From positions 1 through 58,146 of the forward strand of contig CAZYEA010000002.1 in NCBI GenBank assembly GCA_964646485.1: DNA of 58,146 nucleotides, in the 5' to 3' direction. Under the pieces are notes generated by a model. The model made no database searches. It had not been told where the DNA came from and saw only the letters and a program-made list of their open reading frames with translations. This DNA comes from an uncultured Acidobacteriota bacterium. Its GTDB lineage: Bacteria > Acidobacteriota > Vicinamibacteria > Fen-336 > JAGNNV01. The position numbers and the translations under genes were made by a program. Shown piece after piece: positions 2,358-33,931 of the stretch; within the stretch, counting starts at the first letter, position 1, and each line of letters starts with the position of its first letter.

Positions 2358-2380
2358 CGATACGGCTGAGCGGCCTCGCG

Positions 2381-9392: not shown

Positions 9393-9423
9393 TTTGAATT
9401 TCGTGTTTCTGGAGGCTTGCCTC

Positions 9424-10098: not shown

Positions 10099-10147
10099 GG
10101 AGCATCTCCCTCTCGTAAGTTGAATACTAACAGCACGATGTTCCGGT

Positions 10148-11482: not shown

Positions 11483-11488
11483 GATCGA

Positions 11489-12496: not shown

Positions 12497-12560
12497 CGGT
12501 AGCCGAAGAGCTTAGCTTCAGGTTGACCTTCCCTCCCGGATACTCGAAGCTCGGCCTCCC

Positions 12561-13424: not shown

Positions 13425-13433
13425 GCTGCTTCC

Positions 13434-17861: not shown

Positions 17862-18634
17862 TTCAGATCGCGCCTCTTGAAGGCGAGGGTGGCGAGGGCC
17901 AGGAGCGCCCCCGTATAGGCGGCTGCGTACAGGGAGATTTCGAAAAGCAAGGTCGCGGGGATGGTATCGGCGTAAACGGCGCGCGTCTTCAGATCGAAAT
18001 CCTGCAGATTGGGCACCACGTAATAGACCGCCGTGCCCAGCCACTCCGGGAAGTCCTTGAGGATCACCGATGCGTTCTTGAGCACATCGGACATGCGGCC
18101 CAACACGCAGAGCACGGTTGAACCCATGAGGGCAAGCGCGCGCGATGAGGTGGTGGAGAGAAACGCGGCGATTGCGCCAGTAAGAGCTAGCTGAAGAAGG
18201 ATCGCGTAAACCGCCTTCGCCAGGGCGAGGGTGAAGGACCCATTCGCCACCCACAGGGCCACGGCCAGGCCGAGGGTCATGAGCGCGACGCTGGTCGTGA
18301 TGGTGGAGCAGAGCCCCAGGTACCGCCCCACGATGAACTCACTGCGGGTCAGGGGCTTCACCAGCAGGAGATGAAGCGTGCGCTTCTCCACGTCGCGGCT
18401 GATGAGGTCGGAGCCCAGGAAGAGAGCAATGAGGGTGCCGAAGAACTCGGTCGCGGCGAGACCGATGTCCATGAGAATCTTCAAGTCCTGATGAACTGAA
18501 ATGTCCTTCAGGATCAGGGCGGAAGCCATCAGCACGAAGGCGAAGAACAGCAGACCCAGGAACAGGCGCTGCCTTACCGATTCGAGGTGGGTGTTGTAGG
18601 CCACCGCCCACAGTCGGCGCCCGACCGGTGGCAT
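17858..18634 (-). CDS. ABC-2 type transporter permease
   Basis: MPPVGRRLWAVAYNTHLESVRQRLFLGLLFFAFVLMASAL..GSDLISRDVEKRTLHLLLVKPLTRSEFIVGRYLG (characteristic ABC-2 motif), six hydrophobic helices. The ATG at 18634 overlaps the ATPase TGA by 1 nt. Confidence 0.8.
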   Translation of the reverse strand: MPPVGRRLWAVAYNTHLESVRQRLFLGLLFFAFVLMASALILKDISVHQDLKILMDIGLAATEFFGTLIALFLGSDLISRDVEKRTLHLLLVKPLTRSEFIVGRYLGLCSTITTSVALMTLGLAVALWVANGSFTLALAKAVYAILLQLALTGAIAAFLSTTSSRALALMGSTVLCVLGRMSDVLKNASVILKDFPEWLGTAVYYVVPNLQDFDLKTRAVYADTIPATLLFEISLYAAAYTGALLALATLAFKRRDLK

Positions 18635-19542
18635 CACCGCCTGGCCTCGGGCCCGGGGCCGAGGAGATCCTCGATCGAGGCGCGGACGGGCGAGACGCTG
18701 ACGATATGCGCCCCGCGGCGGACAAGGCCGTCGAGAGCCGAGGCAAGCTCGGCCTTGCCGACTCGAAGGGTGGACCGATCTCCCCGGCCTGCCTCGCCCG
18801 GTTGTGCCGTCCCGCGCGGGAGAGTACTCGCGACTTCGAACTCCGAGGGCAGGCCCAGAAGCTCGTCGAGGGTTCCCACCGCGGTCAGGAGGCCGTTCCT
18901 CATGAGCGCCACCCGATCGCAAATGAACTCGGCGTCGGGAACGATGTGGGTTGAAAACAGGATCGAACATCCCTGCGCCTTGAGCTCGAGGAGCAGGTCA
19001 CGGACAAAGCGGCGGCCCAGCGGGTCGAGGCCGGACATCGGTTCGTCCAGCACGAGCAGCTTGGGCTCATTGAGGAGTGCCTGGCCGAGGCCGAGCCGTT
19101 GCATCATGCCTTTGGAGTAGGTGCGGATAGGTCGATCCGCGCTCGCGGTGAGGCCGACGCGCTCAAGCAGCTCGGCAATCCGGACTTTCGAGGAGGCTCG
19201 CTTCTGGTCGAAGAGTTCCGCGCAAAAGGCAAGGAACTCGCGACCCGAAAGATATTCGTAGAAGGAGGGCTGTTCCGGGAGGTATCCGACCTGTGAGCGC
19301 CAGGCGCCGCTGCGCAAAGGAGCGCCCATCAACTCGATATAGCCGGAATCAGGAACGAGCAGTCCAAGCAGGAGCTTGAGGGTGGTGGTCTTTCCGGCTC
19401 CGTTGGCGCCGAGCAGGCCCACAATCTCGCCCTCGGAAACTTTGAGGTCGAGTGGGCCGACGCGAAAACCCGGACCGCGGCGGAAGGGTGTTCGCTGGAC
19501 CTTGACGAGACCCGACAGGGACAGAAACTCTTGGCTTTTCAC
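18634..19542 (-). CDS. ABC transporter ATP-binding protein
   Basis: Walker A GLLGANGAGKTTTLKLL, signature YSKGMMQRLGLGQAL, Walker B LLVLDEPMSGLD, H-loop STHIV. GTG start. Confidence 0.9.
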   Translation of the reverse strand: MKSQEFLSLSGLVKVQRTPFRRGPGFRVGPLDLKVSEGEIVGLLGANGAGKTTTLKLLLGLLVPDSGYIELMGAPLRSGAWRSQVGYLPEQPSFYEYLSGREFLAFCAELFDQKRASSKVRIAELLERVGLTASADRPIRTYSKGMMQRLGLGQALLNEPKLLVLDEPMSGLDPLGRRFVRDLLLELKAQGCSILFSTHIVPDAEFICDRVALMRNGLLTAVGTLDELLGLPSEFEVASTLPRGTAQPGEAGRGDRSTLRVGKAELASALDGLVRRGAHIVSVSPVRASIEDLLGPGPEARR

Positions 19543-19610
19543 GCTTCGCTGGCCTCAAGTCTATTCGGGAACGGGCCACGGCGGCCCGTGCTTCCGAACC
19601 GCCGGTCCGC

Positions 19611-19640
19611 AAAAAAAACCCCGGGCGGTTAAGCCCGGGG
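19611..19640 (-). terminator. rho-independent terminator downstream of pilA
   Basis: Minus strand reads CCCCGGGC-TTAACC-GCCCGGGG followed directly by TTTTTTTT: a perfect 8-bp GC stem, 6-nt loop and T8. A second 6-bp hairpin (GGGCGG-GTTT-CCGCCC) sits at 19650..19665. Confidence 0.8.
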
Positions 19641-19679
19641 TTGCCGAAGGGGCGGAAACCCGCCCATTCAACTATGTCG

Positions 19680-20222
19680 TTACTGGATGACCGTGCAGGT
19701 CGGGCCGAGCTGCCACGCGTTCGCCGCGCCATTCTGGCCGCATTCGAAGGCGCCCGTGATGTTCTGGCAGACGCGACCGGAGGCATCGCCGCCGAAGCCG
19801 CGAACGCCGGTCTGGTTCTGAGTGGTGGGCGTAGCGTCGTAGCAGAAGCCGTCAACAACACCCAAGAGCGTGGTGGGGAGGGGCGCCGCGATATTGCCGG
19901 GAGTGAACGAGCGGTTGTAGCCGCTCTTCGGGGTCAGACCAGTGATGGTCGGGTCCGCGAAAGTCGGCGCGTTGGCGGGATAGTTGACGATGCAGGTGGC
20001 CGGAGTGTTGAGGCAGGCGATGGGCGCGTACCAGCCGTTTGCGGCGGACTGGAAGGCGGCCTGGGCCGAGATGACGGAGCGGATGTCGCCGATCGTGCCG
20101 GCCTCGTTCGCGGAGACGCGAGCGCGGAGGAGAGAGGGAATCGCGATAGCGGCGATGATGCCGATGATCGCAACGACGATCAGGAGCTCGATGAGCGTGA
20201 AGCCTTTTTGATTCTTTTTCAT
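19680..20222 (-). CDS. pilA: major type IVa pilin
   Basis: MKKNQKG/FTLIELLIVVAIIGIIAAIAIPSLLRARVSANEAGTIGDIRSVISAQAAF: short basic leader, Gly-Phe cleavage site, Glu5. C-terminal globular part has 6 Cys. The upstream in-frame ATG at 20264 was rejected because it would give an atypically long leader. Confidence 0.9.
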   Translation of the reverse strand: MKKNQKGFTLIELLIVVAIIGIIAAIAIPSLLRARVSANEAGTIGDIRSVISAQAAFQSAANGWYAPIACLNTPATCIVNYPANAPTFADPTITGLTPKSGYNRSFTPGNIAAPLPTTLLGVVDGFCYDATPTTQNQTGVRGFGGDASGRVCQNITGAFECGQNGAANAWQLGPTCTVIQ

Positions 20223-20288
20223 TTGGGAGTCTTTCGAAGGGTTGAAGGTTGACGAGCCAGTCATCTAGCTCGCACTGCGCTCCGAACC

Positions 20289-20304
20289 TGCATGGAGTGT
20301 GCCA
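20289..20304 (-). promoter_or_regulatory. sigma54 (-24/-12) promoter of pilA
   Basis: Minus strand TGGCAC-ACTCC-ATGCA. The GG and GC dinucleotides have the canonical spacing of TGGCAC-N5-TTGCA. It lies about 65 nt upstream of the pilA ATG, with a sigma54 activator gene (pilR) immediately upstream. Confidence 0.65.
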
Positions 20305-20378
20305 ATGTCATCGGGACGTAACCTACTGAAAAGATAGAGAATGTATGGACGAGACAAGGACAAGCTTTGTTTCCCCCC

Positions 20379-20393
20379 GGACAAAATTTGTCC
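20379..20393. promoter_or_regulatory. palindrome GGACAA-AAT-TTGTCC, candidate enhancer (PilR) binding site
   Basis: Perfect 6+6 inverted repeat about 75-90 nt upstream of the -24 element. Additional GACAAG/GACAAG direct repeats and ACAAGCTTTGT lie at 20353..20371, in the least GC-rich stretch of the window. Confidence 0.4.
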
Positions 20394-20407
20394 CGGAACC
20401 GGGTAAT

Positions 20408-21781
20408 TCAATCCCCTGACTTCTTCGAAAGCAGATATTTGAGGGCACGCTCCGAGATCCCCAGCAACTCGGCGGCCTCCGCCCGACGGTCGTCGGCGAG
20501 TTCCATAGCGCGCTTCACCAGTTGAGACTCGGTGCGCTTGAGGTACTCGTTGAGGGAGAAGCCTGGATAGGGCTCCGGTACCGCCTGTTCCCGGCCCGGG
20601 CTCGCGAGAGACAGGTCTCGCGGCCCCACGACCTCTCCCGAGGCCAGAGTGAGGGCACGCTCCACCACATTTTCGAGCTCGCGGACATTCCCCGCCCAGG
20701 AGTGTCGCATGAGCGCGGACATAGCCGCTGGGGAGAAAGGACGTTTGGGGAGGCCCGACTGGAAGAGGCGGCTCGAAAACTCCGCAACCAGAAGGGGGAT
20801 GTCGTCGGGGCGCTCGCGCAGCGGGGGCAGAGAAACCTGGATCACGTCGATGCGGTAGTACAAGTCCTCGCGGAAGGCGCCTTCGCGAACCATCTGCATG
20901 AGGTCGCGGTGGGTGGCCGCAATCACGCGGACATCGACCGGCGTTTCTTCGGCGCCGCCCACCCGGCGCACCCGGCGCTCCTGAATCACTCGCAGGAGCT
21001 TGACTTGCATGCCCAGGGACATCTCGGCGATTTCGTCGAGAAAGAGCGTTCCCTGGTGCGCCTGTTCGAAGACACCCTCGCGCGACTGGCGCGCGTCGGT
21101 GAAGGCGCCTTTCACGTGGCCGAACAATTCGCTTTCGAGCAGGGACTCGGCGATGGCCCCGCAGTTGACGGCCACAAACGGGCGGTGCTTCCGGGGCGAG
21201 AGATCGTGAATCGCGCGGGCCGCGAGCTCCTTGCCGGTCCCGCTCTCCCCCACGATCAGCACCGTGGATGAGGAGCCGGCCACGGCACGGATGCGCTCAA
21301 TCACCGAACGCATGGCCGCGGATTTGCCGATCAGGCCCTGGATTCCCGCGCGCGCCCCCACCTGGGCGCGCAGTTCGCGGTTCTCGCGCCGCAGATGGGC
21401 GCCTTCGATCGCCTGGCGCGCGCGAATGCGGAGCTCGTCGAGGTCGAAGGGCTTGGTCAGGTAGTCGTGGGCCCCGAGCTTCATCGCCGCGACCGCGGTA
21501 TCCGCGGAGCCGTGGGCGGTCAACACGATCACCGCGGTTTCCGGGGAATCCTCGCGCACGCGGCGAAGAACGGACAGCCCGTCGCCGTCGGGAAGCTGGA
21601 GATCCGTCACCACCAGGTCCCAGTGTTCCGAAAGCTGGGACATGGCCTCGACCTGCCCGGCCGCCACCCCGACCTCGAAGCCCGCGCGGGTCAGGCCGAG
21701 CTTCAGGACATCGCGAAGGGAGGGCTCGTCGTCGACGACGAGGATCCGGCCGTCCGGCTCACGCGAAGCGGCCTCGCTCAC
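20408..21781 (-). CDS. pilR: sigma54-dependent response regulator PilR
   Basis: Receiver (RILVVDDEPSLRDVL..LVVTDLQLPDGDG), AAA+ (VGESGTGKELAARAIH, GAFTDA, ESELFGH), C-terminal HTH (AAELLGISERALKYLL). The GTG start overlaps the pilS stop (GTGA). Confidence 0.9.
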   Translation of the reverse strand: MSEAASREPDGRILVVDDEPSLRDVLKLGLTRAGFEVGVAAGQVEAMSQLSEHWDLVVTDLQLPDGDGLSVLRRVREDSPETAVIVLTAHGSADTAVAAMKLGAHDYLTKPFDLDELRIRARQAIEGAHLRRENRELRAQVGARAGIQGLIGKSAAMRSVIERIRAVAGSSSTVLIVGESGTGKELAARAIHDLSPRKHRPFVAVNCGAIAESLLESELFGHVKGAFTDARQSREGVFEQAHQGTLFLDEIAEMSLGMQVKLLRVIQERRVRRVGGAEETPVDVRVIAATHRDLMQMVREGAFREDLYYRIDVIQVSLPPLRERPDDIPLLVAEFSSRLFQSGLPKRPFSPAAMSALMRHSWAGNVRELENVVERALTLASGEVVGPRDLSLASPGREQAVPEPYPGFSLNEYLKRTESQLVKRAMELADDRRAEAAELLGISERALKYLLSKKSGD

Positions 21782-23433
21782 GCCACCGCTCCCGAAGCGC
21801 CCGCGCGCGCGGCCTGGGGATGGACCTCGGCGAGCAGGCGAATGCGGACCCTGGTGCCTCTCGCGGGCTCGGACGATATGAGCAGGTCGCCGCCCCGCGC
21901 CCGTACCAGGCGATGCGCAATGGCCAGACCGAGGCCGGTGCCCATGGCCTTGCTCGTGCGCAGGGGCTCGAAGAGCTGGGCGAGGCGACGGCGCTCCATG
22001 CCCTGACCCTCGTCGGCAACCTCCACTTCCAGATACTCATCGAGGTCGCGGATGGTGAAGGCCAGAGTCCCGCCCTGGGGCATGGCCTCGAGACCGTTGC
22101 GAGCGAGGTTCCAGACCACCTGCATCAACTCTTCCTCGGCGATCGAAACCCGCACCGGGCGCGGGTGGGGAGTGAAGCTGATGATGTGCTCCGGACGTCT
22201 CTCCGGGCTGATCTCGATAAGCCTCACCGCGTCCCTCAGCACACCGTTGAGGTCGCAGTAGACGGCCGGGTCGTGGGTCTTCACTTCGCGGAGATAGGAG
22301 GTGACGGTGGAGGCCAGGCGTTCGGCCTCTTTGGAAATGATGCGAAGCAGATCCTTCTGGTCCTCGGCGATGGGCGAGGCCTCGGAGAGGAGCTTGGTGG
22401 CCGCGCTGATGGCGCCCAGGGGGTTGCGGATCTCGTGGGCGAGCTGGGCCGCGGCGCTGCCCGCGACCGCGAGCTTCTCGTTCAGCAGGGCCTGCGCCTC
22501 GAGCCGACGCACTTCGGTGAGGTCGCGAATGACCAGGAGGCGCCCGCCCGGCGCCGCGTCGGAAAGCTCCGAGATCCACAGGCCCAGGGTCCGCAGATCT
22601 CCGTCGCCGCGCACGTGTTCGAGTTCGAGCGTGGTTTCAGACCCCGGCTGCGCGCGCGCGCGAAGCTCCGGCGAATTGAAGAGCTCGTCGACCGAGCGGC
22701 TCTGGAGATTCTCGCGGGTGATGCCCAGCATCTCCGCGACACTCGCGTTTGCGAACGACACCCGGTCGGAATTGTCGGTCACGAGAAGGCCCGAATGGAT
22801 GTTCTCGACCACCAGCCGGTTGAAGTCCTGCAGGGTGGCCACCTCGCCCGCCGCCGCATCGAGGCTCTCTCCCGCGCGCTTGAGGGCGCGGGTGAGAAAC
22901 TGACCGAGAGCCGCCACCGGGAACGAGGAAAGGGCCATCCCGATGAGCGCGCCAAAGAGCGGGCGCAGTTCGCCCCGGGCGATCTGTCCCACGTTCTCCT
23001 CGGGAATGACGTCGGCGCGCACGAGCAGGAGCACGGCGGCAAAGAGAATGTTCGCCACCGTCGCAAAGAAGAAGCCGCGACCGAGGAGCACGCTGCCGCA
23101 CAGGACGCTGATCGGATAGAGGATGGCAAATCCGGTCCGGTCCACGCCGGTCAGGTAGACAAACCCGGTCACCACCAGAAGGTCCCCGAGGATCTGCACC
23201 GTGGCCTGCACCCGATAGGGAGCGGCCGCCATCAGGATGGCGTAGACGAGGTTCAGGGCGAAGGTCGCCGATATGAGGCGGAAGATCGGCGGGCTCAGCG
23301 TCCCCTCTTGAACCGCCTCCAGGTATCCGGCCACGAACAAGAGGACGGTGACGATCACCAGACGGAACCCGATCAGGGCTCCGAGCGAAAACGGAGCGTC
23401 GGGCGATGGTGAGTGATCCGGAAAACGGCGCAT
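21778..23433 (-). CDS. pilS: sensor histidine kinase PilS (multi-TM N-terminus, PAS, HisKA, HATPase)
   Basis: About six N-terminal TM helices, a PAS-like segment (LVVENIHSGLLVTDNSDRVSFANASVAEMLG), H-box AAQLAHEIRNPLGAI, N-box VVWNLARNGLEAM, G-boxes VADEGQGM and TGLGLAIAHRLV. Confidence 0.85.
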   Translation of the reverse strand: MRRFPDHSPSPDAPFSLGALIGFRLVIVTVLLFVAGYLEAVQEGTLSPPIFRLISATFALNLVYAILMAAAPYRVQATVQILGDLLVVTGFVYLTGVDRTGFAILYPISVLCGSVLLGRGFFFATVANILFAAVLLLVRADVIPEENVGQIARGELRPLFGALIGMALSSFPVAALGQFLTRALKRAGESLDAAAGEVATLQDFNRLVVENIHSGLLVTDNSDRVSFANASVAEMLGITRENLQSRSVDELFNSPELRARAQPGSETTLELEHVRGDGDLRTLGLWISELSDAAPGGRLLVIRDLTEVRRLEAQALLNEKLAVAGSAAAQLAHEIRNPLGAISAATKLLSEASPIAEDQKDLLRIISKEAERLASTVTSYLREVKTHDPAVYCDLNGVLRDAVRLIEISPERRPEHIISFTPHPRPVRVSIAEEELMQVVWNLARNGLEAMPQGGTLAFTIRDLDEYLEVEVADEGQGMERRRLAQLFEPLRTSKAMGTGLGLAIAHRLVRARGGDLLISSEPARGTRVRIRLLAEVHPQAARAGASGAVA

Positions 23434-23484: not shown

Positions 23485-24684
23485 CTAGCTCAGTTGCGAG
23501 ATCAGCGAGAAGAGCGGCAGGTACATGGCGATGACGATGCCGCCGACGGTGGTCCCGAGGAACAGGATCATGACCGGCTCCATCAGGGTCAGCATGTTGG
23601 CCACCGCCTGGTCGACCTCGTCCTCGTAGAAGTCGGCGACCTTGGAAAGCATGGCGTCGAGGGCGCCCGTCTGCTCACCGACGCTGATCATCTGGACCAC
23701 CATGCCCGGGAAGATCTTCGTCTCCTTGAGCGGCTGGGCGATCGTGAGGCCGCCTTCGACCGATTTCCGGACCGCCATCAGAGCATCCTCGACGATCGCG
23801 TTGCCCGCGGTCTTGGCCGTGATCTCGATGCCGTCGAGGATGGGCACGCCCGAGGCGATCAAGGTGGACAGGGTGCGGCAGAACTTCGAGACCGCGATCT
23901 TGCGGAACAGGTCGCCGAAGATGGGCATCTTCAGGAGCAGGCCGTCGACCACTCGACGGCCCGAGTAGGTGGCGTAGTACTGGCGGAAGGAGTACTGGAG
24001 CAGGAAACCACCGATGATCAGGAAGGGCATCAGCCGGACGAGGAGGTTCGAGGCGGTGATGACCATCTTCGTGGGCAGTGGCAGCTCGGCCCCGAGACCC
24101 GCGAACATGGCCGCAAAGGTGGGGATGACCTTCCACAAGATGACGCCGATGACGAGGGCCGCGATGCTGATGACGGCCACCGGGTACATCATGGCGCCCT
24201 TGATCTGCGCCTGCAGTTTCACCGACTTCTCGATGTAGGTGGCGAGACGCTTCAGGATGGTATCCAGGATACCGCCCGCCTCACCGGCCGCGATCATGTT
24301 GCAGAAAAGGTCGTCGAAGACCTGCGGATGCTTGCGCATCGAGTCGGCGAGGTTCAAGCCGCTCTCGACATCCTGGCGGGTCGCGATGATGACCTTGGCA
24401 AAATGGGGGTTCTCCTGCTGCGAGCCCAGGATTTCCAGGCACTGCACGAGGGGCAGGCCGGCGTCGATCATGACCGAGAACTGACGGACGAAGATGGAGA
24501 GGAGCTTCGCCGGCACGGACTTGCCGGTGGCCTTGGGGCCGCCCTTCTTTTTCTCCGCGATGGAGGCGATGGTGACGCCTTCCTTGCGCAGCCCAGCAGT
24601 CACCTCGTCGGGGTTGGCGCCCACCCGCTCGCCGGAATAGGGCTTGCCGTCCCGGAATTTGCCTTTGACTATGTAGGTCGGCAT
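23485..24684 (-). CDS. pilC: type IV pilus platform protein PilC (GspF family)
   Basis: MPTYIVKGKFRDGKPYSGERVGANPDEVTAGLRKEGVTIASI.. then two GspF-type repeats (FVRQFSVMIDAGLPLVQCLEIL; FCRTLSTLIASGVPILDGIEI) and three TM helices. Confidence 0.9.
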   Translation of the reverse strand: MPTYIVKGKFRDGKPYSGERVGANPDEVTAGLRKEGVTIASIAEKKKGGPKATGKSVPAKLLSIFVRQFSVMIDAGLPLVQCLEILGSQQENPHFAKVIIATRQDVESGLNLADSMRKHPQVFDDLFCNMIAAGEAGGILDTILKRLATYIEKSVKLQAQIKGAMMYPVAVISIAALVIGVILWKVIPTFAAMFAGLGAELPLPTKMVITASNLLVRLMPFLIIGGFLLQYSFRQYYATYSGRRVVDGLLLKMPIFGDLFRKIAVSKFCRTLSTLIASGVPILDGIEITAKTAGNAIVEDALMAVRKSVEGGLTIAQPLKETKIFPGMVVQMISVGEQTGALDAMLSKVADFYEDEVDQAVANMLTLMEPVMILFLGTTVGGIVIAMYLPLFSLISQLS

Positions 24685-24716: not shown

Positions 24717-25865
24717 TCAACGCGCGGGGGGCCGAGGAGGGGCGCCCGGGCGCCCTGCGGCCCCGGTCGGAGCGTTCGACCCGACGCCGCGGTTGATCAT
24801 GTCCTGAAGCTCATCGGGCAGCGAACTGCGCTGAAGCGCGGTCTGCAGATTGATCTGCTTCGTCTGATAGAGCTGGGCCAGACTCTGATTGAACGTCTGC
24901 ATCCCGAACTTGTCCTGGCCCGTCTGCATGGTGGAGTAGATCTGGTGGATCTTGTCTTCGCGGATCAGGTTGCGGATCGCGGGGTTCGGCACCAGGATTT
25001 CCATGGCCATGGCCCGGCCCTTGCCGGATAGCTTGGGCAGGAGCGCCTGGCAGAGGATTCCTTCGATCGTGAGTGCCAGCTGCGCTCGGACCTGTCCCTG
25101 CTGGTGAGCGGGGAACACGTCGATGACGCGGTTGATGGTCTGGGCCGCGGAGTTCGTGTGCAAGGTCCCGAAGGTCAAGTGGCCGGTTTCCGCGATGCGC
25201 AGCGCCGATTCGATCGTCTCGAGGTCGCGCATCTCACCGACGAGCACGACATCAGGGTCTTCGCGAAGGGCGGCGCGCAGGGCGTTGCTGAAAGAGGCGG
25301 TGTCCTGATGCACCTCGCGCTGATTGACCAGGCAGTTCTTGTGCTGATGCACGAACTCGATCGGGTCCTCGATGGTGAGGATGTGGTCGTGGCGATCCAT
25401 GTTGATCTTGTCGATCATGGCTGCGAGTGTCGTGGACTTGCCCGAGCCGGTGGGACCGGTGACGAGCACGAGGCCGCGGGGCTTCTCCGCGATCTGGGCC
25501 ACCACCGCGGGCAGGGCCAGCTGGTTGAAGGACTTGATCTCCACGGGAATGGTCCGGTAAACGGCGCCCACCGCGCCCCGCTGGAAGAAGTTGTTCGCAC
25601 GAAACCGCGCGAGGCCCTTGATGCCGAAGCTGAAGTCGAGTTCGAGGTTTTCCTCGAAGCGATGCTTTTGTGCGTCGGTCAGCACGCTGTACGCGAGCGT
25701 CTTGGTATCCGACTGCGACATGGGCGAAAACCCCTCGAGCGGATGGAGGTGTCCGTCCACGCGGATCTGCGGGGCCGAGTTCGTGGTGATGTGGAGGTCG
25801 GAACCTCCGCGCTCGACCATCGTCTTGAGCAAGTGGTGCAGTGAAAGTGGTGGGGCGTCGGCCAC
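24717..25865 (-). CDS. pilT: twitching-motility retraction ATPase PilT
   Basis: ..GGSDLHITTNSAPQIRVDG.., Walker A GPTGSGKSTTLAAMI, Asp/His boxes, VGEMRDLETI. The GTG at 25865 is preceded by AAGGAGG (25871..25877, minus) with 5-nt spacing. The track ATG at 25907 would overlap the upstream gene. Confidence 0.9.
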   Translation of the reverse strand: MADAPPLSLHHLLKTMVERGGSDLHITTNSAPQIRVDGHLHPLEGFSPMSQSDTKTLAYSVLTDAQKHRFEENLELDFSFGIKGLARFRANNFFQRGAVGAVYRTIPVEIKSFNQLALPAVVAQIAEKPRGLVLVTGPTGSGKSTTLAAMIDKINMDRHDHILTIEDPIEFVHQHKNCLVNQREVHQDTASFSNALRAALREDPDVVLVGEMRDLETIESALRIAETGHLTFGTLHTNSAAQTINRVIDVFPAHQQGQVRAQLALTIEGILCQALLPKLSGKGRAMAMEILVPNPAIRNLIREDKIHQIYSTMQTGQDKFGMQTFNQSLAQLYQTKQINLQTALQRSSLPDELQDMINRGVGSNAPTGAAGRPGAPPRPPAR

Positions 25866-25890
25866 GACTACCTCCTTATGGGCGCAAAGA

Positions 25891-28281
25891 TTATGCCGTG
25901 TCTCCAAGCATACCTTCAGGTGTCCCGTTCGGGGTTGCCGGTCGGAGGAGGGTGAAGGCGAGAAGGAGGGCGGTGATGGCGCTCACCAGGACGCCGGCCA
26001 CCGCAGTCGTCGGCAGGTATCGAAAATCGACCCGGTGGGCGCCCGCGGGAACCTCCACTCCAATGAATGCGGCATTGGCGCGTTCCACCCGCGTCGACAC
26101 GCCGTCCACCCACGCCCTCCACCCTGGGAGCCTGCCCTCGAGGGCAACGAGGAAGGAGGGCTGGTCCGCTTTGACCTCGACCGCGAACCGATCGGCACGC
26201 CTCTGCAGCAGCACAGCCGTCCCCGCGAAATTCGGCGCGGCGTCCCGGAACGGCCCGGAATCGACGAGGACAGTCGTCTGCGGATCGAATCCCGGGTCGA
26301 TCAGATCCGAAAGGTCGCGACCTGTGCCCTGCCGCCGCCCGGAGGTGAGAAAGACCCTCGGACGCGCGCCTGGCACGGCGAAGACCCGCAGTTCCTGGGC
26401 CTGGAAGACGTTGTGGCGGGATAGAAGGCCCAGATCCTCCATGCCCTGTTCATGACGGGCCGCCACCTTCTGAACCCCGGAGATCTGCAGGAGCTTCAGA
26501 AAACCCGGCGTCCCCTCGACGCGTCGCAGGCCTCCGGTCAGAGCGGCCAGGCGGCGATCGAACAGCAGCCTGAGGTCGGCATCCCACGCATAGTCCAAAT
26601 TCCAGAGGGCTCCGGTCAGGGGTAAAAGTGAAGCGCGGGTCGCCACGAGAGCCGCGGCGTCCGGCGAGAGGCCATCGAGGCCTGTCGGCTCCCAGGCCGA
26701 GCCCGAGGTCAGATACTTCTGCGCCCGGCCCTCGAACAGGAAGTAATCGTAGACGTAGATCCGACCTCCCGCCGAAGGGCGCAGCAGATCCAGGTGTGGT
26801 GGCTTGTACCCGAGAAGACGGCTCGGGAGAGTGGGGTTGAGTCCCGAGTGAATATGGATGCTCTGGCTCAGGTGGCCGAAGGCGAGTACGCAAGCGATGA
26901 GAGGGCCGAATCGGCCCAGGCGGCCCCAGGTGGACAATGCGAGTCCGACAAGAACGCTCGCGGATACGAGTAGATCCGGAGGCAGATTGCTCCGAACATC
27001 GCTCATGGCCGAGGTCATCCCAGGATCCAGGAAGGCGCCCACGAAGGCCTCCCACAACGGCCCTCGAAGCACCAGCCCCACGGCCGCCAGCAGAGTTGCC
27101 GTCACCACTGCGACGCGGCGGGCTCTTTGGGACCGGCCGAGGGACGATGCGCCCAGGCCGGCGAGAACGCAAAGGAGGATGGCGGCCGGAATGACCGCCT
27201 TGCTTGGAAAACGCAGAATCTTCAGGGGCGGGATGAGGGCGACCGCAATCGGGTAGGCCGCGGCGTTCTTGCCGAGGGAGACGAGAAGGGCGCCGATCGC
27301 TCCGAGAGCGCAGGCGAGCCGCCGCAGGCGAGGTATCCGGGAATCGGCGAGCGCGGCCAGGGCGAGAGGCAGAATCAGGGAGCCGAGGAAGACGGAGCCG
27401 AGGAATGGCTCGCGGCCTTCAAAAAGGGCCTGCCTCCATTCCGTCCGCAAGGGGAACGCGGCGAGCGGCACCGGGAGGAAGAGCTCCAGCAGGGACACGG
27501 GGTGGAGAGACCACGAGGTGCGGGTGGTTTCGGACAAGGCCGCGCGAGCGGAGGCCGAGAGAATCTCCATCGCGGGCAACCAGACGCCGGCGCTCAAGGC
27601 CAGAGCGGTAGCGAGGCTCAAGAGCAACCCTCGGGCCGCGCGGAAGTACGCAGGAGGCGGGATGAAGAGAACGGAGAGCAGAACCGTCATCGCGCACATG
27701 TCGGCGGACCCGGCGAGGATCTGCAGACCAAAGGCGGCGCCGAGCCCGCCGATCGCACGTGGCTCCTTTTCCTGCACCCGCACGACGCCCAGCAGGACCC
27801 AGGGAATCCACGCCGCTCCGGACATGTGGTGCCAGAGAGTGGCCAGGGATTGGAGCGGGCCGCAGAGGAGCCACGCGGCGCCGCCGACCGCCGCAGAGAG
27901 CCAGGAGCCTTGGGAGATCCGCTGCGCCAACATCGCCACGCCGAGCGCGCCGAAAACCGAATGAAGGGAGACAAACCAGGCATAGGCGAGGTGGGGCGGA
28001 AAGAGAAGGTGGAGAAGCACCGGCGGGTACAGGATCTGGCAACTCGGGTCGGCCAGCAGCGGCTGACCGAAGGCCGAGGTCGGATCGCGCAGCGGCAGGG
28101 CACCCTCGCTGAGTCCACGCAGAGCCGACTGCACGAGCGGAAAGTAAAGGAGGAAGAGGTCGCGCTGATACAGGGCCACGGTTCCCATGAGCACGGGAAG
28201 ACGGAGGAGGAACTCGATCCCGAAAAAGAGCAGAAGCAGTATCCCGGTCGCTCGGCGGGCAGACACCTCGACTGGCTTCAC
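25891..28281 (-). CDS. YfhO-like (GT-C fold) polytopic membrane protein, 796 aa
   Basis: N-terminal YfhO-type pattern LYQRDLFLLYFPLVQSALRGLSEGALPLRDPTSAFGQPLLADPSCQILYPP. Many TM helices. C-terminal pattern ..LPGWRAWVDGVSTRVERANAAFIGVEVPAGAHRVDFRYLP followed by a final TM helix. Paralog of 33932..36199. Confidence 0.7.
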   Translation of the reverse strand: MKPVEVSARRATGILLLLFFGIEFLLRLPVLMGTVALYQRDLFLLYFPLVQSALRGLSEGALPLRDPTSAFGQPLLADPSCQILYPPVLLHLLFPPHLAYAWFVSLHSVFGALGVAMLAQRISQGSWLSAAVGGAAWLLCGPLQSLATLWHHMSGAAWIPWVLLGVVRVQEKEPRAIGGLGAAFGLQILAGSADMCAMTVLLSVLFIPPPAYFRAARGLLLSLATALALSAGVWLPAMEILSASARAALSETTRTSWSLHPVSLLELFLPVPLAAFPLRTEWRQALFEGREPFLGSVFLGSLILPLALAALADSRIPRLRRLACALGAIGALLVSLGKNAAAYPIAVALIPPLKILRFPSKAVIPAAILLCVLAGLGASSLGRSQRARRVAVVTATLLAAVGLVLRGPLWEAFVGAFLDPGMTSAMSDVRSNLPPDLLVSASVLVGLALSTWGRLGRFGPLIACVLAFGHLSQSIHIHSGLNPTLPSRLLGYKPPHLDLLRPSAGGRIYVYDYFLFEGRAQKYLTSGSAWEPTGLDGLSPDAAALVATRASLLPLTGALWNLDYAWDADLRLLFDRRLAALTGGLRRVEGTPGFLKLLQISGVQKVAARHEQGMEDLGLLSRHNVFQAQELRVFAVPGARPRVFLTSGRRQGTGRDLSDLIDPGFDPQTTVLVDSGPFRDAAPNFAGTAVLLQRRADRFAVEVKADQPSFLVALEGRLPGWRAWVDGVSTRVERANAAFIGVEVPAGAHRVDFRYLPTTAVAGVLVSAITALLLAFTLLRPATPNGTPEGMLGDTA

Positions 28282-28467
28282 CGGAGTGTCGACGGGCCGG
28301 GGCTCGCATCCCGGGCGAGCCGACCGGGCGGAAAACCGAAGACGACGGCTGGATGCAAAGCCTCCGCGGGCAGACGGTCTGCGAAAGGGCCGGCCGTTTT
28401 GGTTGTTCCCATGGGTTCAGGAACGGAGCACGCGGGGTCGGGCAGCTTGACCTCGCACCGGGAGGGT

Positions 28468-30324
28468 CTAGAGCACCGTCTCGCGCAGGACCTCTTCGAT
28501 CGTGGTGATCCCCTGCTTGATCTTCTCGAGGCCGCTCATGCGCAGGGTCAGCATGCCTTCCTCGACCGCCTTCTTGCGCAGCTCGACGGAATTGGCGCCC
28601 ATCATGATGAGCTCACGAACCGGATCGTTGATCTCGAGCACTTCGTACAAGCCCACGCGGCCCTTGTAACCGGTGCCGTTGCAGGTCTGGCAGCCGCGTC
28701 CCTTGAACATGGGGAAGGAGCCCACCGCCTCGGCGGGGAAGCCGACGTCGAGCAGGACCTTGGCCGGAACGTCGCGCACCTCTTCCTTGCACTGGGCGCA
28801 GATGCGGCGGATGAGCCGCTGCGCCTGGATGAGGTTCACCGCGGTGCCCACGATGAAGGGCTCGATGCCCATGTTGACCATGCGGGACACGGTCGAGGGC
28901 GCGTCGTTGGTGTGGAGGGTCGAGAGCACGAGATGGCCGGTGAGCGCCGCTTTGGTGGAGATTTCCGCGGTCTCATAGTCGCGGATCTCGCCCACCAGGA
29001 TGATGTTCGGATCCTGGCGCAGGAAGGAGCGCAGGGCGGCCGCGAAGTTGAGGCCGATGGCGTCGCGGATCTGGACCTGGTTGATCCCCATCAGGTTGAA
29101 CTCGACCGGGTCCTCGGCGGTCATGATGTTGATGTCCGGCTTGTTGAGCGAAGCGAGCGCCGAATACAGGGTGTTCGTCTTCCCCGAACCGGTGGGACCG
29201 GTGACGAGGACGATGCCGTAGGGCTTGTCGATGTTGCGTTTGAACTTCTCGAGGGACGACGGCTCGAAACCGAGCTTGGTCATGTCGAGCATCAGCTTGC
29301 TCTTGTCGAGAAGACGCATGACGATCTTCTCGCCCCACAGGGTGGGCAGGCAGGAGACCCGGAAGTCCATCTCGCGGCTGCGGTCTTCGATCTTCAGGCG
29401 GATCTTGATGCGGCCGTCCTGGGGCAGACGCTTTTCCGAGATGTCGAGCTTCGACATGATCTTGATGCGCGAGGTGAGCGGATCCTTGAGCTTCATGGGC
29501 AGAGCCATGATGTTGTAGAGGATGCCGTCGATGCGGAACCGAACCCGGAACTCTTTTTCGTACGGTTCGATGTGGATGTCGGAGGCGCCGCGTTTCAAGG
29601 AGTCGATGAGAAGGACGTTGGCGAGCTTGACCACGGGCGCCGCTTCGGAAGAGCGCGACAGCGCGCCCAGATCGATTTCGTCCTCTTCGGTCTTGAGGGT
29701 TTCGACTTCGCCCTCTTCTTCCCCGATCGAGTCGATGTCGACTTCGGACAAGCCGACCGAGGCCATGTCGTCGAAGGTCAGGCCCGGTCCTTCCATCACT
29801 TCCTTGAGGGAGGGAGCCTTCCCGACGCCGCCTCCGGCTCCCGGCCGCTGCGACGCGGAGGTGGGAGGGCCGCCTTCCTGGCGAAGGGTCAGGGACCGGG
29901 CGCTGCCGTAGAACCGGTTGATCGCTTCTTCGATGGCGATTTCGGAAGCCACCACCGGGTCCACGTTGTACCCGGTCATGAACTTGATGTCGTCCATGGC
30001 GAAGACGTTGGTGGGGTCGCTCATGGCCAGGGAGAGCACGGCGCCCGCGCGCGAGATGGGAATCACCTGGTACTTGCGGCAGGTCTCTCCAGGCAGGACC
30101 TTCAAGACGGTGGGGTCGATGTCGAAGGTGGCGAGGTTGATCGAGGGCACGCCGTACTGGCGCGACAGCAGCCCTGTGATCTCGTCGTCTTTGACGAAGC
30201 CGAGGCTGACGAGAGCCCGACCGAGCTTGACCCCATTCTGCTTCTGATAGGCGAGCGCCTCTTGGAGCTGCTGAGGGGTGATGAGACCCTCTTTCGAGAG
30301 CATCTCTCCGATCTTTACGGGCAT
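28468..30324 (-). CDS. pilB: type IV pilus extension ATPase PilB (GspE family)
   Basis: N-terminal T2SSE_N-like domain (LITPQQLQEALAYQKQNGVKLGRALVSLGFV), Walker A TGPTGSGKTNTLYS, VGEIRDYETAEI, tetracysteine motif CAQC..CQTCNGTGYKGR. Confidence 0.9.
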   Translation of the reverse strand: MPVKIGEMLSKEGLITPQQLQEALAYQKQNGVKLGRALVSLGFVKDDEITGLLSRQYGVPSINLATFDIDPTVLKVLPGETCRKYQVIPISRAGAVLSLAMSDPTNVFAMDDIKFMTGYNVDPVVASEIAIEEAINRFYGSARSLTLRQEGGPPTSASQRPGAGGGVGKAPSLKEVMEGPGLTFDDMASVGLSEVDIDSIGEEEGEVETLKTEEDEIDLGALSRSSEAAPVVKLANVLLIDSLKRGASDIHIEPYEKEFRVRFRIDGILYNIMALPMKLKDPLTSRIKIMSKLDISEKRLPQDGRIKIRLKIEDRSREMDFRVSCLPTLWGEKIVMRLLDKSKLMLDMTKLGFEPSSLEKFKRNIDKPYGIVLVTGPTGSGKTNTLYSALASLNKPDINIMTAEDPVEFNLMGINQVQIRDAIGLNFAAALRSFLRQDPNIILVGEIRDYETAEISTKAALTGHLVLSTLHTNDAPSTVSRMVNMGIEPFIVGTAVNLIQAQRLIRRICAQCKEEVRDVPAKVLLDVGFPAEAVGSFPMFKGRGCQTCNGTGYKGRVGLYEVLEINDPVRELIMMGANSVELRKKAVEEGMLTLRMSGLEKIKQGITTIEEVLRETVL

Positions 30325-30475
30325 GGAACCATATTAGCCCAAGCTCCGCCCCGGCTCGGCGAGGCCGCGGACGCGACCCGAGCGTGAAGACTCGGCCATC
30401 ATCGGACGCGCGCGCGGGGAGCCGGCGAGCTTCGCGGCAGCGAGCCCTCCGGGGCTTCGTCCGATCACGTGAGGC

Positions 30476-32431
30476 TCACGGCCGGTCGTAGCTCAGCAGA
30501 GTCGTACCCCCGAACACCGCGCGAGGGACCAGTCGCGGCGAGTGGAATCGAAGGGGTCGGGCGCTCTCCTCCCAGACCCACGAAGCCCCCAGCCGCAACA
30601 GGATGCTCTCCCCCTCCGCAGCATCCGCGGTTTCGTAGAGGCGGCGCACCGCCGCCTGTCGTTCAGCAGCCAGAGGCGCGCTGACCGAGAAAGGGACAGC
30701 TTGCGCCACCAGGCGGCGGGAGGACAGCAAGCCGACGTACCCCGGCTTCAGTCCACCTCGATTCTCCGGATCGCCCTCGAGCGGGAGGACCAGTCGGGCG
30801 GTCTCCAGCGAGTGCGCGCGGAGCCAGGCGCATGCTTCTGTCGTCGATCGCGACAGCTGGAAGCGCCGCCGATCGAGTGCCTCCTCCGAAGTGAAAAGCT
30901 CCGGGGCGCCCTTCGAGGCGAGATACCTTATCGGGGTCAACACCGACAGGGTCACGATCAGGGCGGCCACGAACCGGTTGAGGCCGGGGCGCTCCAACCT
31001 CACCGACAGGGTGGGTGCGGCGAACACCCACAGCAAGGAGAGAGGGAGAAGCATGAACTGGACGCCGTCCAGGCGGGTTGGATTCCCGACAAAGGTGAGC
31101 GCCATAGTCACCGAAAGCAGCGCGGCGAGGGCGCAAATCCGCGCTCCTTCGGAACCGCGACGCGCCGCGTTCAGGAGCGGTGGAATTCCCAGAAGGCGGA
31201 AACCGAAGCCTCCCAGAAGAACGACGAGACCGGCGAGAGGAACTCCCACCGAGCCGGCGAGGGTCGCGAGCGAGGGATTGCTCGAAAGCGCCTCCTGGAT
31301 GAAGGCCAGGGGATCGACGAGAAGCGGGGCGCCATCGCGAGCGGCTCCGCTCCCGGCCACCAGGGCCATTCCGGGCGCGGCCAGGACGAGGGCGAGAGCG
31401 GCCACCAGAAGAAGGCGTCGGTCGCCGAAGGCGCCGCGCACCGCCACCGCGAGCCAGAGGGGAATGAAGGCGAACACTTTGGTCTGGAAGAGTGCAGCCA
31501 GGAGGACCGCGGCAGGAAGGAGCAAGGAGCGGCCGGGCGCGCGGGTCAGGAGGACGAGACAAAGCAGGGCCGTCAGCATGACCGGAAGTCCCAGCATCCA
31601 GGGGTTGTAGAAGAGGGGTTCGCTGCTGAAGGAGTAGAAGACGAAGAAGTGTCGCGTGCGCTCCAGCCAGCTGCCATTGACGCGGGGCACGAGGAAGGAC
31701 AGGTCGCCGCCGAAGGCGAGAAGGACCATGGTCAGGGCGCGGGAGAGCAGGCTCGATGCGCCCAGAGCCTCGACCAGAGCGGCCGCGGCTATTGCGGTGA
31801 AGACTAGGCCAATCACCGGAAGGCAGGTCCCGAATGCGGCCAGGGCGTCCGCCAAGGCGTAGCGATGAAGCAGAACTCCGGCAAGCGAAGGCAGGTAGGA
31901 ATACTGGAGCGGCAAGGGGGCGAAGCCGGGGTTCTCTATCGCCCAGATCGGGGCCCGCTCGAGCTCCTGCGAGACCCTTCCATAGAAGGCGCGGTCCGAA
32001 ACATCGAAGCCAACCCTCACCGAGAGTCCATCGGGGTTCAGAACGACGTCCGAGGCGTTGACCAGCAGAGCGATGGCGCCGAGCACAATCGCGCTCGCAA
32101 GCTCGGGGGCGATCGCCCGAGCCGAAGACGCCAGGGGGCGACCGGGCCGAAGCCACAGGAGCGATCCTGTGGCGAAGGGAAGGATCAGGCCCCGAAGCCC
32201 AAAGCCCAGTTCAAGGACCAGGACGGAGAGCGTGACGACGGTCCCGACCCCGATCGCCAGGGCCAGGCGGGCGAGCGGCGGCGCCTCCACGCGGAGGAGG
32301 CGCAACGCGACAAAACCTGGCGGAGCGGTGAGAGTGAAGAAGATCGCGGATGCTGCCAAAGTCTCGAACGCGATGGCCCACACTTTTGTCCACATTACGA
32401 GTTGTGCTTTGGCGCTGTCAATCCTCGCCAA
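30476..32431 (-). CDS. polytopic membrane protein (651 aa) with a C-terminal soluble domain; function unknown, possibly GT-C-like
   Basis: About 13 hydrophobic helices, then a roughly 170-aa non-membrane tail. Real coding is supported by clean hydrophobic periodicity versus Arg/Pro-rich shadow frames. Start uncertain (ATG 32431 or 32395). Confidence 0.5.
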   Translation of the reverse strand: MARIDSAKAQLVMWTKVWAIAFETLAASAIFFTLTAPPGFVALRLLRVEAPPLARLALAIGVGTVVTLSVLVLELGFGLRGLILPFATGSLLWLRPGRPLASSARAIAPELASAIVLGAIALLVNASDVVLNPDGLSVRVGFDVSDRAFYGRVSQELERAPIWAIENPGFAPLPLQYSYLPSLAGVLLHRYALADALAAFGTCLPVIGLVFTAIAAAALVEALGASSLLSRALTMVLLAFGGDLSFLVPRVNGSWLERTRHFFVFYSFSSEPLFYNPWMLGLPVMLTALLCLVLLTRAPGRSLLLPAAVLLAALFQTKVFAFIPLWLAVAVRGAFGDRRLLLVAALALVLAAPGMALVAGSGAARDGAPLLVDPLAFIQEALSSNPSLATLAGSVGVPLAGLVVLLGGFGFRLLGIPPLLNAARRGSEGARICALAALLSVTMALTFVGNPTRLDGVQFMLLPLSLLWVFAAPTLSVRLERPGLNRFVAALIVTLSVLTPIRYLASKGAPELFTSEEALDRRRFQLSRSTTEACAWLRAHSLETARLVLPLEGDPENRGGLKPGYVGLLSSRRLVAQAVPFSVSAPLAAERQAAVRRLYETADAAEGESILLRLGASWVWEESARPLRFHSPRLVPRAVFGGTTLLSYDRP

Positions 32432-32657: not shown

Positions 32658-33380
32658 ATGGGAGGCCCGAAGCTCAGCGTAGTGTTGGCCTGCTACAACG
32701 AAGAGGAAACCCTCGAGGCAAGCTTCCTCGAACTGAGGAGCACTCTTGTGCGACTCGATCGCTCGTTCGAGATCGTGATCGTCGATGACCTCAGCCGGGA
32801 TCGAACCCGGGTGCTCATCGACCAGATCGTCGCCGCCCATCGAGACCTGGATGTGCGCGTCCTCCTCCACGACAAAAATCAGGGGCGAGGGGCCACCGTG
32901 ACCGACGGATTCCGCGCCGCGCGCGGGGAGATCGCGGGATATCTCGACATCGATCTGGAGGTTCACTGCCGGTATATCCCCTCCCTCCTGCAGGCGATCG
33001 AGGCGGGCGCCGATGTGGCCACGGTCCGGAGGATCTACGCGCTTCAAATCCGTTACCTCGACCGGTACTTCATGAGCCGGGGTTACTCCTTCCTGGTGAG
33101 ACGGCTCCTGGGCACCCGGCTTTACGACACCGAGACCGGCTTCAAGTTCTTCCGGCGCGAACGGCTCATGGAGGTGATTGACGCGATAGAAGACCCGCGC
33201 TGGTTCTGGGACACGGAATTCATGATCCGGGCCGAGCGCTCCGGCCGACGTATCGCGGAGATCCCGGGCGCCTACGTCCGGCGCGAGGATAAGACATCGA
33301 CGGTGAGCGGCCTGCGCGACTCCGTCGCGTACTTCGGCCGTCTTCTCCGCTTCCGCGCCGCCCTGGGGCGGGCCCGATGA
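32658..33380 (+). CDS. family-2 glycosyltransferase, polyprenyl-phosphate sugar synthase-like (Dpm1/GtrB/ArnC type)
   Basis: LSVVLACYNEEETLEASFLEL..FEIVIVDDLSRDRT..NQGRGATVTDGFRAARGEIAGYLDIDLE (DXD) ..TETGFKFFRRE. Confidence 0.85.
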   Translation: MGGPKLSVVLACYNEEETLEASFLELRSTLVRLDRSFEIVIVDDLSRDRTRVLIDQIVAAHRDLDVRVLLHDKNQGRGATVTDGFRAARGEIAGYLDIDLEVHCRYIPSLLQAIEAGADVATVRRIYALQIRYLDRYFMSRGYSFLVRRLLGTRLYDTETGFKFFRRERLMEVIDAIEDPRWFWDTEFMIRAERSGRRIAEIPGAYVRREDKTSTVSGLRDSVAYFGRLLRFRAALGRAR

Positions 33381-33916
33381 AAGCCGCCTCCGAGATTGGC
33401 TGGGTCCGCATGTGGCGGTTCGGACTCATGACCCTGGCCATGATCCCTTACCACATGGCCCTCTTCCCGCCGGTTCGATCCCTGCTGCTGCGCCTTTACG
33501 GCGCGCAAATCGGCCGCCGGGTGGTGCTCCACAACGCGCGTTTCTTCAATCTGTACCGGCGTGGGCTTTCCGGCCTTCGTCTGGGGGACGAAGTGTTCAT
33601 CGGCGACGAGTGTCTGCTCGATCTCGCGGACAGCATCCAGATCGGTGACCAGGTGACCCTGGCCGAGCGCGTGCTCATCCTCACTCACACGAATGTCGGC
33701 TACCACGACCACCCTCTCCAGAAGCACTTCCCGGCCACCACCACCCCGGTCATCCTGGATCGCGGCTGCTTCGTGGGCGCCCAGGCGGTGATTCTCCCCG
33801 GGGTAAGGATCGGAGAGCGCTCGGTCGTGGCCGCGGGCGCTGTGGTCACCGAGGACGTTGCGCCGGACTCGGTGGTTGCCGGTGTTCCTGCTCGCTTCAT
33901 CCGCTCTCTCGCGTAA
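33377..33916 (+). CDS. left-handed beta-helix (hexapeptide) acyl/acetyltransferase
   Basis: Hexapeptide repeats: LRLGDEVFIGDECLLDLADSIQIGDQVTLAERVLI..ILDRGCFVGAQAVILPGVRIGERSVVAAGAVV. The ATG overlaps the GT2 stop (ATGA). Confidence 0.8.
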   Translation: MKAASEIGWVRMWRFGLMTLAMIPYHMALFPPVRSLLLRLYGAQIGRRVVLHNARFFNLYRRGLSGLRLGDEVFIGDECLLDLADSIQIGDQVTLAERVLILTHTNVGYHDHPLQKHFPATTTPVILDRGCFVGAQAVILPGVRIGERSVVAAGAVVTEDVAPDSVVAGVPARFIRSLA

Positions 33917-33931
33917 AGCGGCCCTGGGATC

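Follow-up and report, generated by a model that had tools for sequence, protein, structure and literature searches.

A YfhO-family GT-C protein encoded between pilB and pilT in an uncultured acidobacterium is a candidate for pilus-linked glycosylation

The stretch of DNA considered here (58,146 nucleotides, contig CAZYEA010000002.1 of GenBank assembly GCA_964646485.1, from an uncultured Acidobacteriota bacterium of the class Vicinamibacteria; referred to below as the window) carries a type IVa pilus cluster in which the motor ATPase genes pilB and pilT are separated by a 796-aa open reading frame (ORF; 25891..28281, minus strand, GTG start), with pilB upstream and pilT downstream on the same strand. 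According to the profile and fold analyses, the ORF encodes an intact and probably active member of the YfhO family of polytopic glycosyltransferases with the GT-C fold, and its involvement in pilus-linked glycosylation is likely. The reading that we favour, with moderate confidence, is that of an active periplasm-facing enzyme, co-expressed with the pilus genes (at least with pilT-pilC), which would use a polyprenyl-phosphate sugar donor and whose acceptors would most likely be pilins.

The relationship to YfhO and the GT-C fold, proposed from the sequence alone in a preliminary description of this locus, was borne out by profile searches and structure prediction. The ORF protein matches the Pfam family YfhO (PF09586) with 37.0 bits, above the gathering score of 28.5, in residues 719–767 only (profile positions 787–835), and the same family is matched by all 41 aligned homologs (best E 6.4e-14). 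The best NCBIfam matches are weak (PgfM2: 24 bits, PgfM1: 19.5 bits, against curated cut-offs of 1500 and 1400) and cover only the C-terminal ~55 residues. The hhalign comparison of the ORF family profile with the Microvirga protein WP_246777255.1, annotated as a YfhO family member, extends over nearly the full length (columns 33–769, probability 99.9%, E 2.4e-32); this proteobacterial protein, found by tblastn against plasmids and used as a family reference only, likewise matches Pfam YfhO at its C-terminus alone. The ORF family sequence profile gave no match at E<=1 among PDB sequences, hence the GT-C fold had to be demonstrated via structure prediction. The AlphaFold2 (AF2) model built from the family alignment is confident (pLDDT 91.5, pTM 0.91), and the Foldseek search of the PDB with this model returned 17 matches at E<=6.1e-3, all of them GT-C enzymes (AftD, ArnT, AglB, STT3, PglB), with AftD (3.6e-9) and ArnT (6e-7, TM-score 0.55 on target) at the top. 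The predicted topology comprises ~13 transmembrane (TM) helices, i.e. TM1 (residues 8–31), about a dozen more up to 456–478, a soluble domain (480–757) and a last TM helix (758–779), in agreement with B. subtilis YfhO, for which ~13 TM helices and a large extracytoplasmic domain between the last two have been described (PMC5836110).

Among 113 YfhO-family ORFs collected from the related loci described below, five positions are invariant or nearly so: R40 (111/113), D41 (112/113), R246 (113/113), R357 (113/113) and K361 (112/113), and the window's copy carries all five. The R40-D41 pair directly follows TM1 (D41 lies 10 residues past the helix) and belongs to the first external loop, where the preliminary description had anticipated a catalytic Asp; this loop would be periplasmic provided that the Arg-rich N-terminus lies in the cytoplasm. 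The combination of an acidic loop 1 residue with basic residues that could bind a lipid phosphate is typical of GT-C enzymes, and a glycosyltransferase of family GT2 encoded nearby shows its best matches to lipid-phosphate sugar synthases.

The ORF has the properties of a genuine gene: its GC content at third codon positions (GC3 = 0.78) is typical of the window's genes, its codon-position GC is normal for the genome, and it has 374 homologs at E<=1e-5, of which those that are named come from Vicinamibacteria, Acidobacteriota. The opposite interpretation, that the minus-strand frame is spurious and antisense to a real gene, was rejected, as the plus-strand ORF (27127..30387) fails the GC3/GC2 test and the minus-strand ORF passes it. 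The public gene call for this protein (P0001) is 765 aa long, starts at M32 and would drop the first TM helix. The 796-aa form, starting with the GTG at 28281, is preferable because TM1 is modelled with pLDDT >90 and is present in the homologs; no clear Shine-Dalgarno sequence was found ahead of this GTG.

The minus strand of the window presents a Myxococcus/Geobacter-style type IVa cluster in the order pilB, ORF, pilT, pilC, pilS, pilR, pilA, followed by an ABC ATPase and a permease (coordinates in Table 1), and the locus is complete, with a PilY1-like protein, PilX, three minor pilins, PilD and PilGHI-like ABC genes. The location of a YfhO-type gene between pilB and pilT on one strand was thus confirmed by the ORF itself, the Pfam assignments of its neighbours and their coordinates. 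As read from the sequence, the ORF ends with TAA at 25893..25891 and pilT begins with GTG at 25865..25863; the 25-nt gap with an AAGGAGG Shine-Dalgarno sequence, reported in the preliminary description, is as stated there, while the pilT start has to be moved from 25866, which is the first base of the gap, to 25865. The consensus scan of both spacers flanking the ORF revealed neither a terminator-like nor a sigma-70-like site. Co-transcription with pilT-pilC, which had been considered likely, is consistent with these sequence features, i.e. the common strand, the short gap with the Shine-Dalgarno sequence and the lack of a terminator, as well as with the tight or overlapping junctions in relatives.

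To place this arrangement in context, the window proteins were mapped onto the contigs encoding homologs of the ORF protein and onto 75 loci from one-genome-per-species assemblies (numbered L001 etc.), and all YfhO-family ORFs were called. In the close clade, whose PilB and PilT are respectively 93–96% and 96–99% identical to those of the window, one to three YfhO genes reside between pilB and pilT in 11 of 11 distinct loci. The content of the site varies: YfhO is alone in the window, L013 and L015; it is preceded by a gene for a ~830-aa spermidine-synthase-like membrane protein in L001, L007 and L010; the same pair is accompanied by a reverse-strand YfhO in L004; two tandem forward copies are present in L011 and L012; and one reverse-strand copy is the only occupant in L066. 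The contigs of L009 and L014 are cut before pilB, and their surviving part has the YfhO gene(s) directly upstream of pilT. The junctions are operon-like: in L001 the 831-aa gene begins 6 nt after pilB and runs 4 nt into YfhO, and 58 nt separate YfhO from pilT. The additional protein is polytopic with a central spermidine-synthase/methyltransferase-like domain (L001 7509..10004, L004 7518..10004, also L007 and L010), and its gene shares 4 nt with the YfhO gene. The window lacks this protein and encodes only a distant 1070-aa Spermine_synth-TPR protein (45399..48611), and no remnant of its gene was found in the 186-nt spacer between pilB and the ORF.

In the neighbour-joining tree the forward YfhOs of the pilB-pilT site group into a single clade, within which three sub-lineages are distinguished. 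The two tandem copies in L011 and in L012 belong to different sub-lineages, which implies an old duplication within the site followed by differential loss. The same history of paralogous sub-clades and loss would account for the lack of correlation between the similarity of pilins and that of YfhOs across relatives (the pilin of L015 is the most similar to that of the window, 89%, and its YfhO is among the least similar, 53%). The reverse-strand YfhOs of the site form a separate clade, distant from the forward ones.

In the more distant Vicinamibacteria (PilB 67–80% identical) pilB and pilT are adjacent, and the family is found at other points of the pil operon. A third YfhO clade, 32–34% identical to the window's protein, is located on the coding strand between pilS and pilR (L057 ~2346..4610, L080 5888..8065, L050 19089..21503); in L080 its stop lies 2 nt from the pilR match and pilB and pilT are adjacent. 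In this clade the family has entered the pil operon independently. A fourth clade occurs immediately upstream of pilB (L021, L036, L058, L074), other YfhOs are found beside the ABC-pilA genes, and on a 3.4-Mb contig (L018 + L028) GT-C modules are located on either side of the entire pil cluster. The statement of the preliminary description that the two ATPase genes are normally neighbours therefore holds for Myxococcus/Geobacter-type clusters and for these distant Vicinamibacteria (L028, L036, L074, L079, L080), and is not universal: in Pseudomonas pilB and pilT belong to separate operons. Different YfhO paralogs have thus been inserted repeatedly and at several points of the pil operon, and as evidence from genomic context this is unusually strong, given that acceptors are difficult to predict in this family.

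Precedents for the proposed function are available from two known systems, which together make a pilin or another pilus acceptor plausible. The streptococcal YfhO-family enzymes PgtC2 and PgfM1 O-glycosylate Ser/Thr residues of extracytoplasmic proteins with lipid-linked sugars made by GtrB or PgfS (PMC12041528). PgtC2 (with GtrB) and PgfM1/PgfM2 (with PgfS) share with the ORF the Pfam YfhO family and the proposed pairing of a GT-C enzyme with a GT-A-type synthase of the lipid-linked sugar, and the best NCBIfam matches of the ORF and of the nearby GT2 are PgfM2/PgfM1 and PgfS, respectively. They differ in that their hosts are Gram-positive, their acceptors are Ser/Thr-rich disordered tails of membrane proteins or adhesins and not pilins, and they have no link to pilus genes. 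The second precedent, TfpW of P. aeruginosa group IV, is a GT-C pilin arabinosyltransferase that transfers the sugar from polyprenyl phosphate onto pilin Ser/Thr residues (bioRxiv 10.1101/2020.04.19.049825; Kus et al. 2008, cited in PMC5836110). By its description TfpW resembles the ORF as a polytopic GT-C protein encoded in a type IV pilus cluster, in which loop 1 and a large C-terminal domain are both periplasmic; unlike the ORF, it has not been placed in the YfhO family, and the ORF is situated between pilB and pilT and not next to pilA.

Two further systems are more remote. The ligases of the PglL/TfpO type (PilO; Neisseria, Pseudomonas, Acinetobacter) correspond to the proposed role of the ORF in that they O-glycosylate pilins in the periplasm and are often encoded in pil loci. 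They are Wzy_C-domain enzymes transferring preassembled glycans from undecaprenyl pyrophosphate, whereas Pfam detected no Wzy_C domain in the ORF or any scanned gene of the window. The CsbB/GtcA/YfhO systems of Bacillus, Staphylococcus and Listeria, which act on teichoic acids, share with the ORF the family name, the ~13-TM architecture (PMC5836110) and the pairing, proposed for the ORF, with a GT2 lipid-sugar synthase. They differ from the window, where a GtrA/GtcA flippase was not found nearby and the GT2 is 240 aa long. Teichoic acid would not be an expected acceptor in a diderm acidobacterium. The flippase gene GtcA of Bacillus is listed apart from csbB-yfhO (PMC8035078). To the teichoic-acid function quoted for YfhO proteins of Firmicutes in the preliminary description have to be added two facts absent from it, the protein O-glycosylation proven for YfhO-family enzymes in streptococci (PMC12041528) and the glycosylation of pilins by TfpW, a different GT-C enzyme.

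In the proposed mechanism a cytoplasmic GT2, for which the 32658..33380 gene product is a candidate, would load a sugar onto polyprenyl phosphate, a flippase encoded outside the window would move the lipid-linked sugar to the periplasmic face, and the ORF enzyme would transfer it to a pilus acceptor exposed to the periplasm, the most likely targets being Ser/Thr residues in PilA or the minor pilins that are not yet assembled. Asp41 of loop 1 would have a catalytic role, and the lipid phosphate would be held by Arg246, Arg357 and Lys361. The candidate GT2 belongs to a divergent operon with a second YfhO gene and not to the transcription unit of the ORF; its best NCBIfam matches (PgfS 68.7 bits, ArnC 64.3 bits, dolichyl-P hexose transferase 51 bits) are all far under the curated cut-offs.

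Several observations count against this reading. The similarity of the ORF protein to characterised YfhO/PgfM proteins of Firmicutes is limited to the last ~50 residues, both in Pfam and in NCBIfam. Mature PilA (173 aa, 6 Cys, 15% Ser+Thr), the candidate acceptor, is devoid of a Ser/Thr-rich disordered tract of the kind targeted by PgtC2 and PgfM1 (at most 7 Ser/Thr per 25 residues), and a search for such streptococcal-type tracts in all window proteins revealed none that is convincing. The ORF lies 5.6 kb from pilA, past pilT, pilC, pilS and pilR, while known pilin glycosyltransferases adjoin pilA. The Pfam scan identified no flippase domain of the GtrA or Wzx type among the scanned called genes of the window. 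As for the comparative evidence, all relatives found are uncultured metagenome-assembled genomes. Among the 40 survey loci that are 15 kb or longer, 22 have specific pil genes within 10 kb of a YfhO gene (the random-gene estimate is ~1%), which speaks for a link to the pilus; this figure has to be read with the fact that the survey loci were found with patterns derived from the ORF protein itself and are thereby biased to pil-linked paralogs; the other 18 large loci have no pil gene, and the YfhO family is heavily expanded in the class. One of the loci, L006, contains five YfhO paralogs within 22 kb (7057..22349) with no pil genes in view, and its region is syntenic with the right flank of the window (M28 peptidase, pirin, DUF179, CoA-transferase, DsbD, M1 peptidase, Spermine_synth-TPR). 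Three of these five paralogs are the sister group of the pilB-pilT clade. The pil cluster is also located in a YfhO-rich neighbourhood, and local duplication could explain a part of the pil linkage. The lack of a Ser/Thr tract in PilA, the distance from pilA, the expansion of the family and the predominance of glycopolymers among the acceptors of characterised YfhOs are the reasons why acceptors other than pilins, as well as a passenger status of the gene, have to be considered.

The alternative of greatest weight, somewhat unlikely in our estimate, is that the ORF encodes an active GT-C enzyme which decorates an envelope glycan or surface glycoproteins other than pilins (e.g. exopolysaccharide or lipopolysaccharide) and is co-expressed with the pilus because pili and surface glycans are coordinated, as type IV pili and exopolysaccharide are in Myxococcus. 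Most of the characterised YfhO enzymes indeed modify glycopolymers such as lipoteichoic and wall teichoic acids (PMC5836110, PMC8035078), the best structural match of the ORF is AftD, a polysaccharide arabinosyltransferase, and many YfhO paralogs are located away from pil genes. Other genes of the locus would also suit polysaccharide work, namely the PilGHI-like ABC transporter, the GT2, the acetyltransferase and the methyltransferase, and the C-terminal β-sandwich of a second GT-C-fold protein of the window (mem717, see below) resembles carbohydrate-binding modules. This explanation leaves unaccounted for the four separate YfhO clades wedged among core pil genes on the coding strand, and the scanned genes of the window include no Wzx/Wzy, polysaccharide export or initiating phosphoglycosyltransferase genes.

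It is improbable that the ORF is a mere passenger, i.e. that local duplication of YfhO genes beside the pil cluster dropped one copy between pilB and pilT, which has been inherited since without a functional tie to the pilus. Such a history would agree with the sister relationship to the L006 tandem array and its synteny with the window, with the monophyly of the forward pilB-pilT clade, which implies a single insertion, and with the distant genome (L018 + L028) in which the GT-C modules merely flank the pil cluster. Against it speak the occupation of the site in every close-clade locus despite 37–48% divergence of the YfhO proteins and repeated gain and loss of copies, the independent clades on the reverse strand of the same site, between pilS and pilR and upstream of pilB, the operon-tight junctions and the intact residues of the catalytic type. 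A protein that has lost or never had transferase activity and assists the pilus machine as an accessory or scaffold in the inner membrane, as its position between two motor ATPase genes and the lack of a donor-pathway gene in its transcription unit could suggest, is very unlikely given the near-invariant GT-C-type Asp, Arg and Lys residues, the retention of the full GT-C fold with the large periplasmic domain and the copy number of the cassette, which varies in a manner not expected of a structural machine part.

Returning to pilins as the acceptors, the site between pilB and pilT is occupied in this lineage by a cassette of variable content, with one to three YfhO paralogs and in some loci the ~830-aa membrane protein, and different relatives would then make different glycoforms. 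We tentatively consider a stronger version of this proposal, in which we have rather low confidence: the stretch would be a glycosylation cassette, comprising the ~830-aa protein and as many as three YfhO paralogs that belong to at least two clades, which is co-transcribed with the pilus motor genes and whose products glycosylate pilins as they are made. As paralogs are gained and lost, the glycoform of the pilus would become more diverse, e.g. against pilus-specific phages or predators.

GT-C enzymes, protein glycosylation by YfhO and pilin glycosylation by the GT-C enzyme TfpW are already known; the novelty resides in a YfhO gene inside a pilus operon. Searches of the full-text literature revealed no paper that reports YfhO-family genes from type IV pilus operons or in connection with the pili of Acidobacteriota, and a search on TfpW and GT-C pilin glycosylation brought up no YfhO enzyme in that role, in agreement with the preliminary description, which knew of no such case for a pilus motor operon. 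Glycosylation of pilins changes the surface chemistry of the pilus and adhesion, and in Pseudomonas it protects against pilus-specific phages (bioRxiv 10.1101/150227). The enzymes known to glycosylate pilins are ligases of the PglL/TfpO type and a single GT-C enzyme, TfpW; a YfhO-type system, if confirmed, would be a third enzymatic route, the first of its type for pilins and the first pilin modification system described in Acidobacteriota. It would also extend protein glycosylation by the YfhO family from Gram-positive cocci to diderm soil bacteria and provide the first functional handle on the large uncharacterised YfhO/GT-C expansion in Vicinamibacteria, an abundant and little-studied class of soil bacteria.

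Table 1. Pilus, glycosylation-related and intergenic features of the window, in order of position.
Feature	Position	Strand	Evidence and remarks
FkbM-family methyltransferase	12561..13424	+	Pfam Methyltransf_21 72 bits; between pilD and mem717
mem717, 717-aa polytopic GT-C-fold protein	13434..15587	+	no Pfam family; AF2 pLDDT 86.9
pilA, major pilin	19680..20264	-	prepilin motif G/FTLIELL, composition; likely start M15 at 20222
pilR	20408..21781	-	L001 and L004 orthologs with Response_reg/Sigma54_activat; two-component pair with pilS
pilS	21778..23433	-	L001 and L004 orthologs with 6TM_PilS/HisKA/HATPase_c
pilC, platform protein	23485..24684	-	94–98% identical to T2SSF genes of L001 and L004
pilT, retraction ATPase	24717..25865	-	Pfam T2SSE 164 bits; GTG start
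Spacer, ORF to pilT, 25 nt	25866..25890	-	pilT Shine-Dalgarno ends 5 nt before GTG
Spacer, pilB to ORF, 186 nt	28282..28467	-	
pilB, extension ATPase	28468..30324	-	Pfam T2SSE 455 bits and MshEN
GT2 glycosyltransferase, 240 aa	32658..33380	+	Pfam Glycos_transf_2 95 bits; candidate polyprenyl-phosphate-sugar synthase (donor supply)
Hexapeptide-repeat (WcaF-like) acetyltransferase	33377..33916	+	Pfam/NCBIfam
Second YfhO-family GT-C protein, 755 aa	33932..36199	+	Pfam YfhO 44 bits

The window contains other genes with a potential role in sugar handling. The GT2, the acetyltransferase and the second YfhO form a triad (32658..36199), divergent from the pilB side, which recurs in L021, L026, L030, L036, L058, L060 and L065 and is kept beside pilB in distant Vicinamibacteria (L021, L028, L036, L058, L060, L065). 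The FkbM methyltransferase could methylate a sugar of the same pathway. Its neighbour mem717 appears, from its AF2 model, to represent an unnamed GT-C family: Foldseek gave 37 matches at E<=0.001, all of them GT-C proteins (STT3, AglB, PglB, ALG12, ArnT, Emb, Aft), and only 136 homologs were found among 5.8 billion proteins, all from Vicinamibacteria where the source is named. In the related loci mem717 is often encoded directly upstream of a YfhO gene (L025, L029, L032, L040).

Two further polytopic proteins are encoded on the minus strand. The 651-aa protein (30476..32431), immediately upstream of pilB, has no match in Pfam or NCBIfam and no homolog in 81 related loci. The 482-aa protein (15562..17010), between mem717 and the ABC genes, has no significant family match, and homologs of it were seen in L013 and L019 alone; it may be a further enzyme of the GT-C kind. 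The possibility that the 651-, 717- and 482-aa membrane proteins are YfhO paralogs was rejected, as hhalign detected no relationship of any of them to the YfhO profile.

Among the remaining pilus genes, 2381..6841 (minus strand) lies on the coding strand, downstream of the genes for PilX and the minor pilins. Its 1486-aa product shows no more than a weak VWA match and is probably a tip protein of the PilY1 type. The C-terminal tail of this protein contains the densest Ser/Thr tract in the window (12 of 25 residues at 1448–1472). Rfam and tRNA scans of the window returned nothing. Sigma-54-type promoter-like sites (TGGCAC-N5-TTGC, one mismatch each) are present on the minus strand at 20289..20304, by pilA, and at 10082..10097, by the minor-pilin genes; three such sites were found in the window, with 0.73 expected by chance, and the location of these two just upstream of pilA and the minor-pilin genes is, as far as promoter motifs can tell, consistent with control by PilR.

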